A stretch of 64,000 bases of DNA from an uncultured Peptococcaceae bacterium (GCA_963807495.1 CAWEDD010000005.1:28953-92952); one strand, 5' to 3'. Counted from the first letter of the stretch, positions 57,029 to 63,170 are shown. Notes: generated by a model from the letters alone, not told the origin. Translations and numbers: made by a program.

Positions 57029-58243
57029 TCAGGGAGTATCGCGAAACAGAAACAGCTCCGTTGCACTTCTTTTTATAGTATTGCCAAGACGCATTCCGGC
57101 TTCGCGGGCGGCAGCCAGCTCCTGTTCGTCAGGTATGTAAAGGAGGTTGATTATCTCCTCCGGCATCTCCCAGCCCATCTCCTTGATAGCATCCGCTACC
57201 CCCCGGGCACCCTGGCCGCCCCAGCCGTCGGACCCGAAAGCCATGCCGATCCTGTGTTTGGGTCGCAGCCCCTTGAGGTACGTGAGCAGGGAGCCGATGG
57301 AAGGCAGCATGCCGTTGTTGAGAGTGGCGGTGCCGATCAGGATCGCCTTTGAGGTCAACACTTCAGGTATGACCTCAGATATATGATTGGTCTGGAGAAA
57401 CTTCATGGTGACCGGCACCCCGGCTGCCTCCAGCCCCTCCTGCAGGGCATAGGCGATCTTCTGCGTGGAGCCCCACATGGTATCGTAGACGATCACGGCC
57501 TTGGGGTCCGATTCGTTGTTTGCCCAGCGCTGATAGACAGTTAAAAGCTGGGGGATGTATGAGCGCCAGATCAGCCCGTGGCTGGGAGCGATCATATCGA
57601 TCGGCAGCGACCCCACAACTTCCAGGGCGCTGCCCACCTGTTCGCCATAAGGAAAGACGATGTTGGCGTAGTACTTGGCAGCCTCCTCGTGGACGATATC
57701 CCAGCCCAGCTCGTCGTCGAAGCGTGCGGCGCTAGCTATGTGCTGACCGAAGGCATCGTTGGGAAGCAGCAGCTTCTGGTCGGGGATATAGGTGACCATT
57801 GAATCCGGCCAGTGCACCATCGGCGTGTGCACGAACTTCAGAGTGCGCTGCCCCAGCTTAAGTTCGTCGCCGGAGTTGACGATCATGTAGTCCCATGACT
57901 TCTTGTAGTGACGGTCCAGTCCCTTCTGGCCCTTGGGCGAGGTGACTATCTTGATCTGGGGGGCGGCTTCCAGCAGCTTGGGCACGCTGCCGGAGTGGTC
58001 CATCTCCACGTGGTTGACCACCAGGTAGTCGATCTTGGCCGGGTCGACCACCTCCTTGACCCTGCTCCACATCTCGTCGAACAGGTAGTGCTTCACGGTG
58101 TCCACCAGTACGATCTTCTCGTCAATGATCAGGTAGGAGTTGTAAGTAGTGCCGCGGGGGGTGAGGTAGCCATGGAAGTACCTCAAGTTCCAGTCGATGC
58201 CTCCGACCCAAAAAACTCCGGGCTTGATCTCCAAGGGCTTCAT
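57029..58243 (-). CDS. FprA-family flavodiiron protein (O2/NO reductase)
   Basis: This is an intact 404-aa ORF. It has a metallo-beta-lactamase-like diiron domain (NSYLIIDEKIVLVDT, VVNHVEMDHSG) and a C-terminal flavodoxin domain (AVIVYDTMWGSTQKIA). Confidence 0.9.
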   Translation of the reverse strand: MKPLEIKPGVFWVGGIDWNLRYFHGYLTPRGTTYNSYLIIDEKIVLVDTVKHYLFDEMWSRVKEVVDPAKIDYLVVNHVEMDHSGSVPKLLEAAPQIKIVTSPKGQKGLDRHYKKSWDYMIVNSGDELKLGQRTLKFVHTPMVHWPDSMVTYIPDQKLLLPNDAFGQHIASAARFDDELGWDIVHEEAAKYYANIVFPYGEQVGSALEVVGSLPIDMIAPSHGLIWRSYIPQLLTVYQRWANNESDPKAVIVYDTMWGSTQKIAYALQEGLEAAGVPVTMKFLQTNHISEVIPEVLTSKAILIGTATLNNGMLPSIGSLLTYLKGLRPKHRIGMAFGSDGWGGQGARGVADAIKEMGWEMPEEIINLLYIPDEQELAAAREAGMRLGNTIKRSATELFLFRDTP

Positions 58244-58513
58244 TAAATCTCCTCCTTAGCGTTTTTATTGTTCAAAAATATCAAGGGGATACATCTCCTG
58301 ATCCCAGGACTGCTCTATTTATTCCGGAGATTTTACCATTGATCTGGAAAGGCAGAAAGCTGCCGGCAAGAATTCCACCAGCCGGTGCCGATTTAATGCC
58401 CGGTGCAGTTTTTAATGCTATGAGGCGATATGCGGAGGGTTTCTAGGGGGTCTACCGTCAACTTTACTCCAAGATACCCGGAGTGTCAATTCAACAGACT
58501 TTTAGGTGGTGGG

Positions 58514-59347
58514 TCATTTTGAATTTTCCAACAATTCCACAATATCCAGACATGTCCAAACTCGATTCGTTATTCCAGCAGCAATAGCCGGAGTCGTTTT
58601 TAATGTCTTATGAACACGGCAGAAATTGTAATACATAAAATGCAAGGATACAGCCGCCTCTAAGTTCTCAATCTTCTTTGAAAAGGCATTCGTCAATCTC
58701 GTAAACCGCCTCATGCCCATTCTCATAGTCAAGTTCTGCCTTTCAACATAACTGGTTGATATATGAGTGGGATCGGGATTGCCTTGAACTTTCTCAGCTA
58801 TAACACCTGTGCATATAGCTGGACTATATCTTACTTCTCTCTTTTCCTCATTGCCGTAAAGCTTGATCAAAATAGCGTAATCAATATCGCTACCGAATAC
58901 ACTTTCCACTGCACTTAAATATGCCCTGTGTCCATCAGTGGTCAGTTGAACCCTATTTGAAAGGCGACCTGCAAGATCCTTTATGAATCTCGTGGCATCA
59001 TACAGATCACGCTTGCCAACCAGCCAGGAGGGAACTAATTTGGTGTCCGCGCATATTGCGGTGAACGTCCAAACATCACCGAACCCTAAAATACCTTTTA
59101 CTTCTTTAGGCACGTTCTTTTCTTTTGCATAACAGAACGACCATATTTCATCACACTGGATACGCTTGCAGGGTAAATTCCTAAACGCTTCATCTTGATA
59201 TTTTGCACAGGCTTGCCCAGCTTGATTTAATAAGCGCAAGACAGTGCCTTTTGCCGTATTGGTCATTCGGCAAGTTGCTAGTACTGAATTGCCCTCGATT
59301 AAAGCCTGTATTACCTGTGCTCTTTGGGTAACGCTTAATCTGTTCAT
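58514..59347 (-). CDS. IS1-family DDE transposase (single ORF, N-terminal HTH)
   Basis: It has MNRLSVTQRAQVIQALIEGNS (the HTH), CDEIWSF, LTTDGHRAY and SYVERQNLTMRMGMRRFTRLTNAFSKK, a pattern typical of IS1-type transposases. Its stop lies inside IR-L. Confidence 0.8.
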   Translation of the reverse strand: MNRLSVTQRAQVIQALIEGNSVLATCRMTNTAKGTVLRLLNQAGQACAKYQDEAFRNLPCKRIQCDEIWSFCYAKEKNVPKEVKGILGFGDVWTFTAICADTKLVPSWLVGKRDLYDATRFIKDLAGRLSNRVQLTTDGHRAYLSAVESVFGSDIDYAILIKLYGNEEKREVRYSPAICTGVIAEKVQGNPDPTHISTSYVERQNLTMRMGMRRFTRLTNAFSKKIENLEAAVSLHFMYYNFCRVHKTLKTTPAIAAGITNRVWTCLDIVELLENSK

Positions 59348-59353
59348 ACTTCT

Positions 59354-59382
59354 ATTATACTTGAGCGCTCAAGCATTGTCAA
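59354..59382 (-). promoter_or_regulatory. Consensus sigma-A promoter of the transposase with a palindromic operator in the spacer
   Basis: On the minus strand: TTGACA (59382-59377), a 17-nt spacer containing the perfect 14-bp palindrome CTTGAGCGCTCAAG (59360-59373), then TATAAT (59359-54). The ATG lies only 6 nt downstream, which would make the mRNA leaderless or nearly so. Confidence 0.6.
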
Positions 59383-59478
59383 CAATTATTTCAATAATTT
59401 TATATGATTTTTTGTCTAAAATATAACGACTATCTGTGCAATAATTTCCGATTGATAATTTATTTTTCTCGTCCATGA

Positions 59479-60520
59479 TCACAGAATACTAACTAAATAA
59501 TTGAGTTCTCTTTGATACCTTTCAGCAGAATCATTGACTTGTAATCTTTTCCCTTGAATTTTATGAAAAGACCTTGCTTTTAAGCATTCAATAGGGACAC
59601 TTTTTGCGCCGCTAATTCTCCCTGTTGACATAAAATCATCCGTGATAACAAATGCATCTATTGGATCGTCATAATCAAAAAGATTTTGTACTGATATGCT
59701 AATGACAATGCTCTTTCGATATACATTCTTGACGCGCTTGTCGGGGGTTGATTTGGGTTGGCTTCTTGCTCCAACCATAGTCATAACAATGGCAGCTATC
59801 TTCGGAGAAGGGAGGCCCTCCAGCACGTTTATTCCACATCACAAAGTCTTTTTGTTCGTTAAGAGAAGATCTAGAGTAAGACTAAGAGATTCGATAGAGT
59901 GCTCATCTACGCGGACGGGGACAATGACCGCATCAGCCGCACACCAGGATAAGTGCGTGCCGCCGGAATAAAATGGGCTGGTATCCATTAAAACTTTATC
60001 AGATTTCTTATATTCAGTTTCTTTATCAAGAATATCCTTCAGACATTCTAATAATTTTCTCATGGCGCTAACATTAGATTGCGCATTTGCAATTTGAAGT
60101 TGCTGATATAGGGTTGATGGAAAAGCAAACATCTCCGCATCGCCTGGTATAACATAAGAAATTTTCCCACCCTTGAATGAGTCGCAATAATTACTAATAC
60201 GATATGATATATCTTCTAAAACATCTCCGAATGCAGGCCCCAGAACAAAACAGGCCTCAAAGCTTTTAAAACAGTTATATCTGGACTCTCATTGTGCATT
60301 AGAGATTCTGTTAGATTGCATTGAGGACACAAATCTGCAACCAATAAATGGTGGGATCTTGATATTTTATATGCAAGGTTGAACGCAAGAGTAGACTTAC
60401 CTACTCCCCCCGCAATGTCGATATCGCATAGCTTCTATATTTCAAACCACCTGTCTTCGTGTATCCCTCTTCCGCTACTTTCGCATAAACATCCATAATT
60501 TTTTGTATTTCTCCTGCCAT
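59479..60520 (-). pseudogene. ParA/Soj-like Walker ATPase, disrupted (two frameshifts plus an in-frame TGA)
   Basis: My minus-strand reading starts at ATG 60520 after GGAGG. It has Walker A IAGGVGKSTLAFNLA (frame change near 60417), a second frame change near 60240, an in-frame TGA at 59839-59841, and a ParA-like PFYSGGTHLSWCAADAVIVPVRVDEHSIESL. Confidence 0.7.
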
Positions 60521-60564
60521 TTCTTGTTCCTCCCCTTTTGGTTATTTTATAAAGATAATACCAT

Positions 60565-60664
60565 GCAGGAGATGCAGGTGCAACATAAATGTGCAGGAGA
60601 TGCAGGTGCAACATAAATGTGCAGGAGATGCAGGTGCAACATAAATGTGCAGGAGATGCAGGTG
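60565..60664. repeat. Perfect 28-bp tandem repeat (3.6 copies), iteron/centromere-like
   Basis: GCAGGAGATGCAGGTGCAACATAAATGT occurs at 60565, 60593 and 60621, with a partial copy at 60649-60664. It lies directly upstream of the ParA-like gene. Confidence 0.9.
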
Positions 60665-60787
60665 TCGATTATTCCGAAACTGAAGAAAACAGCCAAAAGA
60701 AAAGAAAATCCCTTTTGGCCTCGGTGTAGAACACGGACCAAATATTATTCTTTGTTTTATTCCTTGAGCGGAAATATCCGCGTCATA

Positions 60788-61093
60788 TTAAGCTTTAGAC
60801 CTATTTTGCCAGCGTGTCTTTGCGGCCTTAGTTGCTATTTCTTTCCTTTTCTCAGGTGATAGTTTTTCTGGCCTGGCTTTGCCGCCTTTACGCCCCCCTA
60901 AACGTCCTAATGCAACGGCAGCTTTGTTCTTTTTTATACTGGGTTTTTCTCTGGGCAGACTTTCATCTGTTGCCGCATCAACGATACTGGCAGCTATTTG
61001 ATTTATGTCCTGTTTGGTTTCCTTGCTTGATCGCTTAGGCATGTTTATATTATTACACAGACTTTGAATTTTATCAAGTAGGTTATTTCTCAT
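60788..61093 (-). CDS. Small basic protein with a KAAVALGRLGGRKGGKARPEKLSPEKRKEIA tail (putative DNA-binding)
   Basis: The ORF lies within 60788..61204. The start is uncertain (ATG 61093 or 61042), and neither candidate has a good RBS. The lysine/arginine-rich C-terminus is a recurrent motif in small phage/plasmid proteins. Confidence 0.45.
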   Translation of the reverse strand: MRNNLLDKIQSLCNNINMPKRSSKETKQDINQIAASIVDAATDESLPREKPSIKKNKAAVALGRLGGRKGGKARPEKLSPEKRKEIATKAAKTRWQNRSKA

Positions 61094-61153
61094 AGAGGAA
61101 ACTGTTACCAAATGTCGAATAAGTGTCAGAAAAATAAAGAAGGGGAGAGAGAT

Positions 61154-62098
61154 ATGTGCGCTGACGAAAAACACCCTAATGCTACACATACTGGTGAACT
61201 GCAAATAGGCGAACTGCTTATTCCTTGTGCTGTCTTAGAAACCGGTGAACGGGTTGTTTCTGAAAGAGGAGTTATTAAGGCTTTAGGTGGTAAGCGTGGT
61301 GGTGCACATTGGCAAAGAATAAAAGCATCTGAGGATGGCGCCTATTTACCTGTTTACGCATCGGCAAAAAACCTAGAACCCTTTATTGATGCGGATCTAG
61401 CAATGGCGCTCACCCAACCCATTTTATATCAAGGTAAAAGTGGAGGACGGGCTGCTTATGGTGTAAATGCAATACTTTTACCCCGAATATGTAACGTATG
61501 GTTAAAAGCGCGAGATGCAGGGGTTTTGAAGCCTAGTCAAGAGCATATGGCTATAATGGCCGATATTTTAATTAGAGGATTAGCAGAAGTAGGTATTATT
61601 GCCCTTGTTGATGAAGCAACAGGTTATCAAGCAGAAAGAGATAGAGATGAGTTACAAAAATTACTTGCAAAATATTTATCAGAAGAACGTCTTAAATGGG
61701 CTAAAATGTTTCCAGATGAATATTATCGACAATTATTTCGACTTCGAGGTTGGACATATAAACCGCTTGATACTAAGCGTCCCAAATATGTTGGTCTTCT
61801 AACAAATCGATTGGTTTATGATAAGTTACTGCCTGATGCACATGCTGAACTAAGAAGATTAAACCCTGTAAGGAATAAAGAAACATATAGACGGGGCGCT
61901 GCCCATTTTCAATATCTTTCTGCTGATATTGGTCAGCCCGATCTAAGAGATCATCTGTTACAGCTAATCGCCATAATGAGAATATCAGATAACTGGGAAG
62001 AATTTATCTGTAATTTTAATAAAGCCTTTCCTGCTCTAGGAGAACCTATCCAAGTAGAATTAGAAGATATAAAAGATGATGAAAATGATAAGCAGTAA
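61154..62098 (+). CDS. P63C domain-containing protein (phage-associated, function unknown)
   Basis: The start ATG 61154 follows the RBS AAGGGGAGAG. IPCAVLETGERVVSERGVIKALGGKRGG...LPRICNVWLKARDAGVLKPSQ....IIALVDEATGYQ..R..DELQ resembles the P63C family as I remember it. This was not verified by a search. Confidence 0.6.
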   Translation: MCADEKHPNATHTGELQIGELLIPCAVLETGERVVSERGVIKALGGKRGGAHWQRIKASEDGAYLPVYASAKNLEPFIDADLAMALTQPILYQGKSGGRAAYGVNAILLPRICNVWLKARDAGVLKPSQEHMAIMADILIRGLAEVGIIALVDEATGYQAERDRDELQKLLAKYLSEERLKWAKMFPDEYYRQLFRLRGWTYKPLDTKRPKYVGLLTNRLVYDKLLPDAHAELRRLNPVRNKETYRRGAAHFQYLSADIGQPDLRDHLLQLIAIMRISDNWEEFICNFNKAFPALGEPIQVELEDIKDDENDKQ

Positions 62099-62261
62099 TA
62101 AATAAAGTATAGGCTTATATATTTGAGATTCTTATTATTCTGAGGGAGTTAGGACTCCCTCATTCAAATTGACCCACTACCGACTTTTACATGTTTCAGT
62201 ACCCGCAAACTCCTGGTATGGCCGCGGTAGTATAGTCCTTGTTCAAGTGTTCAAAAAACGA

Positions 62262-62289
62262 TTGACAGGGCAGCGGCCGATGATATAAT
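62262..62289 (+). promoter_or_regulatory. Sigma-A promoter of the pyr leader
   Basis: TTGACA (62262-62267), a 16-nt spacer, then TATAAT (62284-62289). Confidence 0.6.
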
Positions 62290-62298
62290 AAGCTTCAG

Positions 62299-62409
62299 GA
62301 ATCCTTTAATGCCAGCCCCGAGAGGCTGCAAAGGGAGAGGGTGTCGGTATGGGCTTCATCAGGAAAAGCGACCTGGTTACAAGGAACAATCCTTGTAGGC
62401 GGGTTTTTT
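62299..62409 (+). promoter_or_regulatory. PyrR-binding attenuator (binding loop plus terminator)
   Basis: AATCCTTTAATGCCAGCCCCGAGAGGCTGCAAAGGGA (62299-62338) matches the conserved PyrR RNA motif (UCCUUUAA..CCAG..GAGAGGCU..AAGG). The downstream hairpin CCTGGTTACAAGGA/TCCTTGTAGGCGGG (62372-62403) is followed by TTTTTT. Confidence 0.75.
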
Positions 62410-62609
62410 AATTTTAGAGGCGGGTTATTCGGCAGGCTTCTTGGTTGGAGAGCAGTTTTTTATGTGAGCTTGTACTACTCAGCCTGTTCATGAAGACAGA
62501 ATAGCGAGGAAAAGCACCGGTTTTTTACAGGAGCAAGCAAGCTTGTAGACGCAGGCAAGTTTTTTGCCGGGATGGACAGTTTCTTATCGGGTGATCAGGT
62601 TTTTTATGA

Positions 62610-63170
<561 letters not shown>

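Follow-up and report, generated by a model that had tools for sequence, protein, structure and literature searches.

We describe a mobile element in a 64,000-nucleotide stretch of DNA from an uncultured Peptococcaceae bacterium (GCA_963807495.1, CAWEDD010000005.1:28953-92952), hereafter called the window, whose positions are counted from its first letter. Positions 58505-62181 of the window very probably form a single transposable unit, namely a passenger-carrying insertion sequence (tIS) that belongs to a distant branch of the IS1 family in which the transposase is encoded by a single open reading frame (ORF). An initial annotation of this DNA had proposed that the transposase and its neighbouring genes were mobilised together as one passenger-carrying insertion sequence (IS), and this proposal is strongly supported by a set of 61 related elements, 58 of which are flanked by perfect 8-bp duplications. 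Each of these 58 elements has a duplication of its own, which shows that units of this type are inserted in one piece.

Ends of the element and target-site duplication

The element is 3,677 bp long and is bounded by 20-bp terminal inverted repeats that match at 18 of 20 positions, as the initial annotation had it. An identical 8-bp direct repeat, also claimed there, adjoins both of them. The ends and the duplication are as follows.

58497..58504, no strand: left copy of the target-site duplication, GACTTTTA, identical to 62182-62189
58505..58524, + strand: terminal inverted repeat at the transposase 3' end (IRR in transposase orientation), GGTGGTGGGTCATTTTGAAT, found by repeat search
62162..62181, - strand: transposase-distal terminal inverted repeat (IRL in transposase orientation), GGTAGTGGGTCAATTTGAAT, an exact match to the family consensus
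62182..62189, no strand: right copy of the target-site duplication, GACTTTTA, read directly

More than 119 genome stretches, spread over many phyla, contain the family consensus of the repeat, GGTAGTGGGTCAWTTTGAAT. Within the 64-kb window, these two copies are the only matches with at most 3 mismatches, and 100 shuffles of the sequence gave none. The duplication GACTTTTA abuts the outer edge of both repeats, and the chance of such a match at a fixed position is 4^-8, or about 1.5e-5. The ends of the element read GGTGGTG... and GGTAGTG..., which fits the GGnnnTG with which the termini of IS1-family elements begin according to ISfinder. Positions 10-12 of IRR (TCA) are the complement of the TGA stop codon of the transposase gene, so that the gene ends inside the repeat. 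We find, as had been noted before, a single transposase gene in the element and no third copy of the repeat near its promoter: the repeat search of the window returned nothing at the transposase 5' end. A match to the 12-mer core of the repeat at 58084, with 2 mismatches, lies inside the flavodiiron gene next to the element and is at chance level.

The element has a G+C content of 39.6%, as against 58.5% in the 2 kb that flank it on each side. The drop to AT-rich DNA that had been said to coincide with the ends is real and lies near them, but the boundary is not razor-sharp, since the intergenic flanks are themselves intermediate in G+C (0.44-0.48) and blur it. In 54 elements, the G+C content of the element follows that of its host (r = 0.85), with a mean deficit of 8 points. 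The difference between the window element and its flanks is -0.19 (19 points), which is the second most extreme value of the 54, and because of this gap we favour a recent foreign origin; the low G+C content would fit a fairly recent arrival from a donor of lower G+C.

Related elements and transposition as a unit

Relatives were collected by three independent routes, starting from the repeat sequence, from the transposase and from the small basic protein described below, with isolate plasmids in addition. The resulting 61 repeat-bounded elements come from many phyla, from metagenomes and from two isolate plasmids, and they measure 2,083-4,656 bp. By the first route, a scan of a genome collection for GGTRGTGGGTCAWTTTGAAT led to the more than 119 stretches mentioned above; the loci with a full transposase homologue (52-66% identical to that of the window) have a repeat pair 2,127-4,656 bp apart, and they yielded 20 elements, 19 of them with a perfect 8-bp duplication. 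By the second route, 80 metagenome loci yielded 38 complete elements of 2,083-4,474 bp, with a perfect duplication in 37 cases and a 7/8 match in the other; the remaining 42 loci were truncated at contig ends or had diverged repeats. The third route added one element of 3,229 bp, in which the order is small gene, Fic, NYN, transposase. Finally, two complete plasmids of cultured bacteria each carry an element with a perfect duplication, one of 3,370 bp in Mesorhizobium loti and one of 2,634 bp in Acidiphilium multivorum.

None of the 61 complete elements is free of cargo, no cargo-free form of about 1 kb was found, and a repeat just upstream of the transposase is absent from all 61. The initial annotation had pointed out that copies of about 1 kb, with an inverted repeat immediately upstream of the transposase promoter, would speak against its proposal; no such copy occurs among the relatives collected. 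Three candidates for a minimal IS on short metagenome contigs (L187, L205 and L140) had 3 mismatches in 12, no extension and no duplication, and we attribute them to chance. A search of 119 loci that was validated by the duplication gave 18 transposase-bearing elements (2,127-4,656 bp) and 11 transposase-less ones (59-775 bp), with no class of intermediate size between 775 and 2,127 bp. In this lineage the insertion of long units is the rule and not the exception, and the window element is a typical member of it.

The lineage has a core of two genes, one for a small protein (~80 aa) that normally comes first inside one repeat, and one for the transposase, which normally ends inside the other. 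Cargo can occupy any of three gaps. It lies between the repeat and the small gene in the window element and at loci L118, L076 and L149. Most often it separates the small gene from the transposase. In a third arrangement, seen at L189, L114 and L188, it follows the transposase, before the repeat, and the two core genes are direct neighbours.

Since the transposase-less miniatures share the repeats and the perfect 8-bp duplications, the family also spawns derivatives that resemble miniature inverted-repeat transposable elements (MITEs). They include L057:6948-7006, L052:3633-3776, L067:1994-2238 and L097:4353-4776, as well as L021:4065-4752, L050:5983-6724 and L115:3673-4447. Repeat-like copies in the same orientation occur ~100-120 bp apart at L072:6478-6851 and 298 bp apart at L023:6487-6804; these could represent miniature elements, or solo ends, arrayed in tandem. 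The duplications could not be interpreted in terms of a target-site preference, their orientations being mixed.

The transposase

58514..59347, - strand: DDE transposase, a single ORF of 277 aa (ORF call), with its TGA stop codon at 58514-58516 inside the repeat

At least 8,000 homologues of this protein exist; where NCBI and JGI give them a name, it is mostly ‘IS1 family transposase’. For a direct comparison with IS1 we used the InsAB' protein of E. coli IS1A, rebuilt from an annotated copy, in which MGEQW was restored to the canonical D. BLASTP against InsAB' recovers only a C-terminal ER.NL..R...FSK motif (E 5e-5). A profile comparison by hhalign between a 27-member alignment of the family and InsAB' gives a probability of 88% and an E-value of 2.8e-6 over 162 columns. 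This alignment begins at InsA residue 53, past the zinc finger, takes in the InsA helix-turn-helix and continues as far as the catalytic residues, so that D66, D138 and E202 are aligned with the DDE of IS1; the paired motifs are DEIW/DEQW, TDGH/TDGW and VERQNL/IERHNL. Because the family profile aligns with the catalytic triad of InsAB' and leaves the zinc finger uncovered, we take the transposase to be a distant, single-ORF member of the IS1 family with an N-terminal helix-turn-helix and without the zinc finger of InsA.

The small basic protein

60788..61042, - strand: small basic protein of 84 aa, MPKRSSK...KNKAAVALGRLGGRKGGKARPEKLSPEKRKEIATKAAKTRW, conserved second core gene

The initial annotation had counted the small basic protein among the cargo. 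The larger set of elements places it elsewhere: a profile search finds the gene in 55 of the 61 elements, and since its position and orientation are kept as well, we consider it part of the core. In 52 elements it precedes the transposase on the same strand, and it mostly starts 56-93 nt inside the transposase-distal repeat. When the ORFs of the first 20 elements were clustered, just two families were shared, the transposase and this protein. Its consensus, MPKRSSK..D.NQLA..IV..AT......KNPAAVALGRLGG.KGGKARA.KL.PE.R.EIA.KAA.ARW, is strongly conserved.

The protein has at least 7,770 homologues, which are unnamed or called ‘hypothetical protein’ and have no Pfam domain. An exception in the annotation is the copy at L129:3075-3284, on the Mesorhizobium loti plasmid p_1 (CP050295.1), which is labelled ‘histone H1’ in GenBank; this label is likely a misnomer that stems from a Lys/Ala-rich composition. 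Searches with the window protein matched no family in Pfam, NCBIfam or PADLOC, and a profile comparison with InsA found no similarity (probability 0.1%). A search against the sequences of the PDB gave HEAT-repeat matches only, which we judged spurious. The AlphaFold model consists of three helices (pLDDT 71, pTM 0.28), and Foldseek returned nothing for it at E below 8.

Many proteins with a P63C domain begin with 38 residues that are homologous to a motif of the small protein (GG.ARA..L....R..IA..AA..RW); this is the domain that is also found in a cargo protein of the window element. The family PHROG 2384 consists of an N-terminal copy of this motif followed by the P63C body; the window small protein covers its positions 7-38 and the window P63C protein its positions 38-335. 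Motif and body are encoded by separate, divergent genes in the window, and are fused at L083, L195 and L163.

Promoters and a putative shared operator

59354..59382, - strand: transposase promoter/operator, TTGACA, 17-nt spacer ATGCTTGAGCGCTCAAG, TATAAT, a 12/12 match to the consensus
59360-59373: perfect 14-bp palindrome CTTGAGCGCTCAAG in the promoter spacer
61026..61042, - strand: second operator-like motif ATGCCTAAGCGATCAAG, overlapping the start codon of the small ORF, 3 mismatches to the motif of the transposase promoter
61049..61077, - strand: candidate promoter of the small ORF, TTGATA, 17 nt, TG-AATAAT, 10/12, extended -10
60691..60720, - strand: terminator-like hairpin and T-run 3' of the small ORF, parting the 28-bp array (see below) from the small gene
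62142..62161, + strand: hairpin GAGGGAGT-TAGG-ACTCCCTC, 3' of the P63C gene and abutting the repeat, without a T-run

The -10 box of the transposase promoter ends 6 nt before the ATG, which is the spacing expected for a leaderless mRNA, and the transposase mRNA is probably leaderless. The 29-nt promoter block is kept at the nucleotide level in ~10 of the first 16 aligned elements, which come from differing phyla and whose transposases are just 52-66% identical to that of the window. The 17-nt operator-like motif has 42 matches in 20 elements, as against 1.4 in shuffles, and 13 of these 20 elements have the same layout of two sites, one at the transposase promoter and one at the promoter or start of the small gene. 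We infer that the palindromic motif at the two core genes may be a shared operator for one repressor. Our best candidate for it is the small protein, in that case a functional, non-homologous analogue of the InsA of IS1, although we consider this somewhat less likely than not.

Taken together, these features suggest how the element might work. The transposase gene would have a consensus promoter to itself and give rise to a leaderless mRNA. To go by the chemistry of the IS1 family, the DDE transposase would bind both repeats, cut the target with an 8-bp stagger and join the whole repeat-to-repeat segment to it. The palindrome, which recurs at the start or promoter of the small gene, would serve as the operator through which a single repressor holds both core genes down. 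Our confidence in the regulatory part of this mechanism is moderate to low.

The hairpin at 62142-62161 may act as a terminator. Two further observations concern the DNA between the transposase promoter and the next gene: positions 59383-59503 form an AT-rich spacer (31-33% G+C) that separates the promoter from the ParA pseudogene described below, and an imperfect 26-nt inverted repeat (59383-59408 and 59478-59503, 73% complementary) lies at its edges.

Cargo

61112..62098, + strand: P63C-domain protein of 328 aa (Pfam P63C, 1.7e-28; PHROG 2384, 7e-104)
59479..60520, - strand: ParA-like P-loop ATPase pseudogene, from a three-frame reading; decayed cargo
60564..60664, no strand: 28-bp unit TGCAGGAGATGCAGGTGCAACATAAATG, 3.6 perfect copies (period 28, 100% matches), just upstream of the ParA-like gene

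The cargo of the window element occupies two gaps: the one that separates the far repeat from the small gene holds the P63C gene, and the one before the transposase holds the ParA-like gene and the array. Both the P63C gene and the ParA-like pseudogene lie between the terminal repeats, and the 8-bp duplication lies outside them. The cargo list of the initial annotation stands in part: the P63C gene is an intact passenger, and the ParA-like gene and the 28-bp array are cargo as well, but the ParA-like gene is a pseudogene and the small protein belongs to the core. The P63C gene is the sole intact true passenger in the window element. P63C genes recur in 5 of the 61 elements, and PADLOC matched 0 families when run on the P63C protein and the small protein of the window.

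The ParA-like gene has frameshifts at ~60425 (in a G-run) and ~60270 and an in-frame TGA at ~59838. Once repaired, its sequence matches Pfam AAA_31 with 58 bits and, over residues 9-311, PHROG 164 (‘ParA-like partition protein’) at 6.7e-40. Although one of the frameshifts falls in a G-run, the lesions are the result of decay and not sequencing noise, since the neighbouring host genes are intact. No array of the 28-bp type was seen upstream of the genes of other elements, and we therefore assign the array of the window to the ParA cassette, for which it could be an operator or a centromere-like site. The element holds no intact ParA, and no ParB of a ParABS partition system was identified. The small protein was considered as a ParB of the ParA cassette and rejected, because 54 other elements carry the small protein and show no ParA.

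Across the 61 elements the cargo is diverse and mostly of a selfish or defence type. It includes GmrSD (HEC-06 in PADLOC), a methylase-Mrr fusion, a helix-turn-helix (HTH) protein with an M78/IrrE domain (like PD-Lambda-2_B) and NYN (HEC-09); the PADLOC matches in the cargo of other elements are HEC-06/GmrSD, MTase_II, PD-Lambda-2_B and HEC-09. Further cargo comprises Fic, proteases of the SDH and Clp types, STAND ATPase, MazF, HicB, AbiEii-like ATPases, DUF3800 and P63C.

Two modules recur. An HTH-IrrE/M78 gene is found at L175, L145, L149, L199, L129 and L040, in most cases with a partner of ~160-200 aa, and it is the L040 copy that matches PD-Lambda-2_B of PADLOC. Proteins of ~230-300 aa with the N-terminus MT.CIAA occur at L171, L132, L179, L142 and L133; by eye they resemble hydrolases of the N-terminal-nucleophile or proteasome type, and no Pfam family turned up for them. 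The element at L054:2738-5948 contains a gene for a 535-aa rve-type integrase and lacks the small gene; the integrase is probably a second IS nested in the element.

Weighing the alternatives

Several results weigh against the interpretation given above, or against parts of it. With regard to the unit itself, the initial annotation had recommended that the empty site be sought in related genomes or metagenomes. The reconstructed empty site is CAATTCAACAGACTTTTACATGTTTCAGTACCC, and when metagenome contigs were scanned for exact matches to TTCAACAGACTTTTACATGTTTCAG, there were 0. In the nearest relatives with usable contigs, whose flavodiiron protein is 79% identical, a different gene of 402 aa separates the flavodiiron gene from pyrR, and the intergenic DNA cannot be aligned. 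There is also no second copy of the exact element in the window or in exact-protein look-ups: those with the transposase, the flavodiiron protein and the 100%-identical database entry P0001 gave no other context, and the cluster listing added a 1.3-kb contig. Since no second copy was found, the mobility of the window element itself is inferred from its duplication and from its relatives. With regard to the IS1 assignment, the transposase scores below the curated cut-offs of the two relevant models, with 46.4 bits against a cut-off of 100 for NCBIfam transpos_IS1 (NF033558) and 20.4 bits against 24.1 for Pfam DDE_Tnp_IS1 (PF03400). The missing cargo-free forms could partly reflect a bias of assembly, since short IS in many copies collapse or break short-read contigs, and 42 of the 80 metagenome loci were incomplete at contig ends or had repeats too diverged. 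As for regulation, the operator motif occurs in 25 of the 55 elements with the small gene and in 0 of the 6 without it, which is not significant (Fisher p = 0.07), and the supposed regulator has no relative in sequence or fold, its model being of moderate confidence (pLDDT 71).

One could nevertheless imagine that the element is an ordinary IS of about 1 kb that happens to lie beside unrelated AT-rich DNA, the far repeat being a stray solo end and the 8-bp match a coincidence. Classical IS1 is indeed only ~0.8 kb long and carries only its transposase, and this family also occurs elsewhere as solo repeats and as short derivatives that lack the transposase. However, nothing like a repeat lies upstream of the transposase in the window or in the 61 elements, the 8-bp match abuts both repeats exactly (with the chance of about 1.5e-5 given above), the long architecture with its duplications recurs 58 times, and the small gene, which is the usual neighbour of the far repeat, lies inside the unit. 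We regard this explanation as highly improbable. Equally hard to credit is a composite transposon, in which two IS copies would have surrounded a plasmid or phage remnant (ParA, array and P63C) before one of the copies decayed. A ParA with an upstream array and a P63C gene are both typical of plasmids and phages, and the ParA gene has decayed; but there is no remnant of a second transposase and no internal repeat pair, with none near 61100-62160 in particular, the far repeat is neighboured by the P63C gene and a hairpin rather than by IS sequence, and one transposase with two repeats and a duplication is standard in 61 elements with unrelated cargo.

A more serious alternative, although still one we think unlikely, accepts the unit and holds that the small protein is merely a frequent passenger, of a nucleoid-associated, anti-defence or antitoxin-like kind. 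In its favour, the protein has no detectable relation to InsA or to a known DNA-binding fold, the 6 elements without the gene still have duplications, its motif is found at the N-terminus of many P63C proteins, themselves passengers in these elements, and the association with the operator motif is not significant. On the other hand, the gene is found in 90% of the elements, at a fixed position and orientation by one repeat in elements that are otherwise variable; in 13 of 20 elements the 17-nt motif of the transposase promoter recurs at its start or promoter; and it lies directly upstream of the transposase at L189, L114 and L188, as insA does to insB. We thus retain the reading of the window element as a single passenger-carrying unit with a two-gene core. 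A bolder claim would be that the lineage is an unrecognised, phylum-spanning class derived from IS1 that always carries cargo, with a two-gene core, leaderless consensus promoters, a shared operator and, in the small protein, a new regulator of transposition. The claim in this full form strikes us as doubtful.

Comparison with known systems

The element resembles IS1 of E. coli in several respects. Profile comparison shows the transposases to be homologous and brings their catalytic D, D and E into register; the termini fit the GGTnnTG of the IS1 family, and the duplication is 8 bp long here, IS1 itself making duplications of 8-9 bp; and the 3' end of the transposase gene overlaps one repeat while a small basic gene comes first inside the other. 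Unlike in IS1, the transposase here is a single ORF without a programmed -1 frameshift or the InsA zinc finger, it has its own consensus promoter and operator, and it falls below the cut-offs of the curated models; the small protein is unrelated to InsA; and the elements measure 2.1-4.7 kb with their passengers, as against 768 bp for IS1. The ISMhu11 subgroup of the IS1 family (ISfinder), with elements of 900-4600 bp and two ORFs, may be this lineage; its size range and two-gene layout would fit.

The passenger-carrying IS, or tIS, an IS derivative with passenger genes between its inverted repeats, is an accepted category (PMC9330008; PMC7986276). The window element conforms to this category in having one transposase, one pair of repeats, one duplication and, inside, genes that have no part in transposition and whose loss would require events independent of it. 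It is unusual in its relatives: cargo-free relatives predominate among the known examples of tIS, whereas 0 of the 61 complete elements here are cargo-free, a difference to which assembly bias may contribute. The link to MITEs derived from IS is provided by the 11 transposase-less derivatives of 59-775 bp in other genomes, which have kept the repeats of the family and are flanked by perfect 8-bp duplications; the window element, by contrast, is autonomous, with an intact transposase and small gene.

The ParA region recalls plasmid partition cassettes of type Ib, in which a ParA gene with upstream iterons is accompanied by a small ParB or ParG; here a ParA-like gene has a perfect upstream array of 28-bp units and a small basic protein nearby. 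In contrast to such cassettes, the ParA of the window is a pseudogene, and the small protein belongs to the IS core, its gene lying upstream of the repeats of the array and behind its own terminator. The ParA region of the window is not a working partition system. Neither the conserved small protein nor the shared operator, the cargo spectrum or the all-cargo membership is described in the literature that we searched.

Significance of the lineage

The wider interest of the element lies in its relatives. An IS lineage with thousands of members routinely moves 1-3 kb of variable genes, many of them toxin-antitoxin or defence genes, and it has reached Acidobacteriota, Chloroflexota, Patescibacteria, Pseudomonadota, Bacillota and other phyla. 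Because annotation pipelines label only the transposase, the units and their cargo go unseen. The small gene, for which none of the at least 7,770 homologues has a functional name, gains a concrete context and a testable role. The very broad host range would find a simple explanation in the conserved promoter-operator and in mRNAs that apparently lack a leader. If the lineage did prove to be a class that always carries cargo, it would act as an all-purpose carrier of genes of the defence type, among them toxin-antitoxin, Fic, protease and restriction genes, and its leaderless consensus promoters should work in almost any bacterium.

The host locus

The host belongs to the Bacillota and is Desulfofundulus-like; the flavodiiron protein is 75% identical to that of D. 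kuznetsovii. The element is inserted between the divergent promoters of the flavodiiron-protein gene and the pyr operon. The relatives whose flavodiiron protein is 79% identical keep the neighbourhood of the flavodiiron gene and pyrR-pyrB-pyrC, and no part of the element was seen in their flavodiiron-pyrR region, a comparison made at the level of synteny only. The initial annotation had been concerned that related genomes might already have the ParA/P63C region at this locus without the inverted repeats; the nearest relatives that could be retrieved give no such picture. In the closest relative (flavodiiron protein 86% identical), the contig stops 45 bp upstream of the flavodiiron gene (L126:1-45). 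This contig end is on the side of the element, which in the window lies ~260 bp upstream of the flavodiiron start codon, and it may be an assembly break induced by a repeat.

On the pyr side, a consensus promoter with an extended -10, a perfect match, precedes pyrR (62262-62289, + strand) and is followed by two terminator-like hairpins (62377-62398 and 62541-62556, + strand). This arrangement looks like a pyr attenuation leader; an Rfam scan of 57900-63000 gave nothing at the gathering score, so that the leader is unconfirmed as a PyrR-binding RNA. On the other side, a candidate promoter of the flavodiiron gene (58461-58489, - strand) lies 8 bp from the duplication. The insertion has hit neither of the two divergent promoters, and at the level of this genome its effect is modest: a mobile element has come to lie between them, disrupts neither, and brings with it one intact P63C gene.

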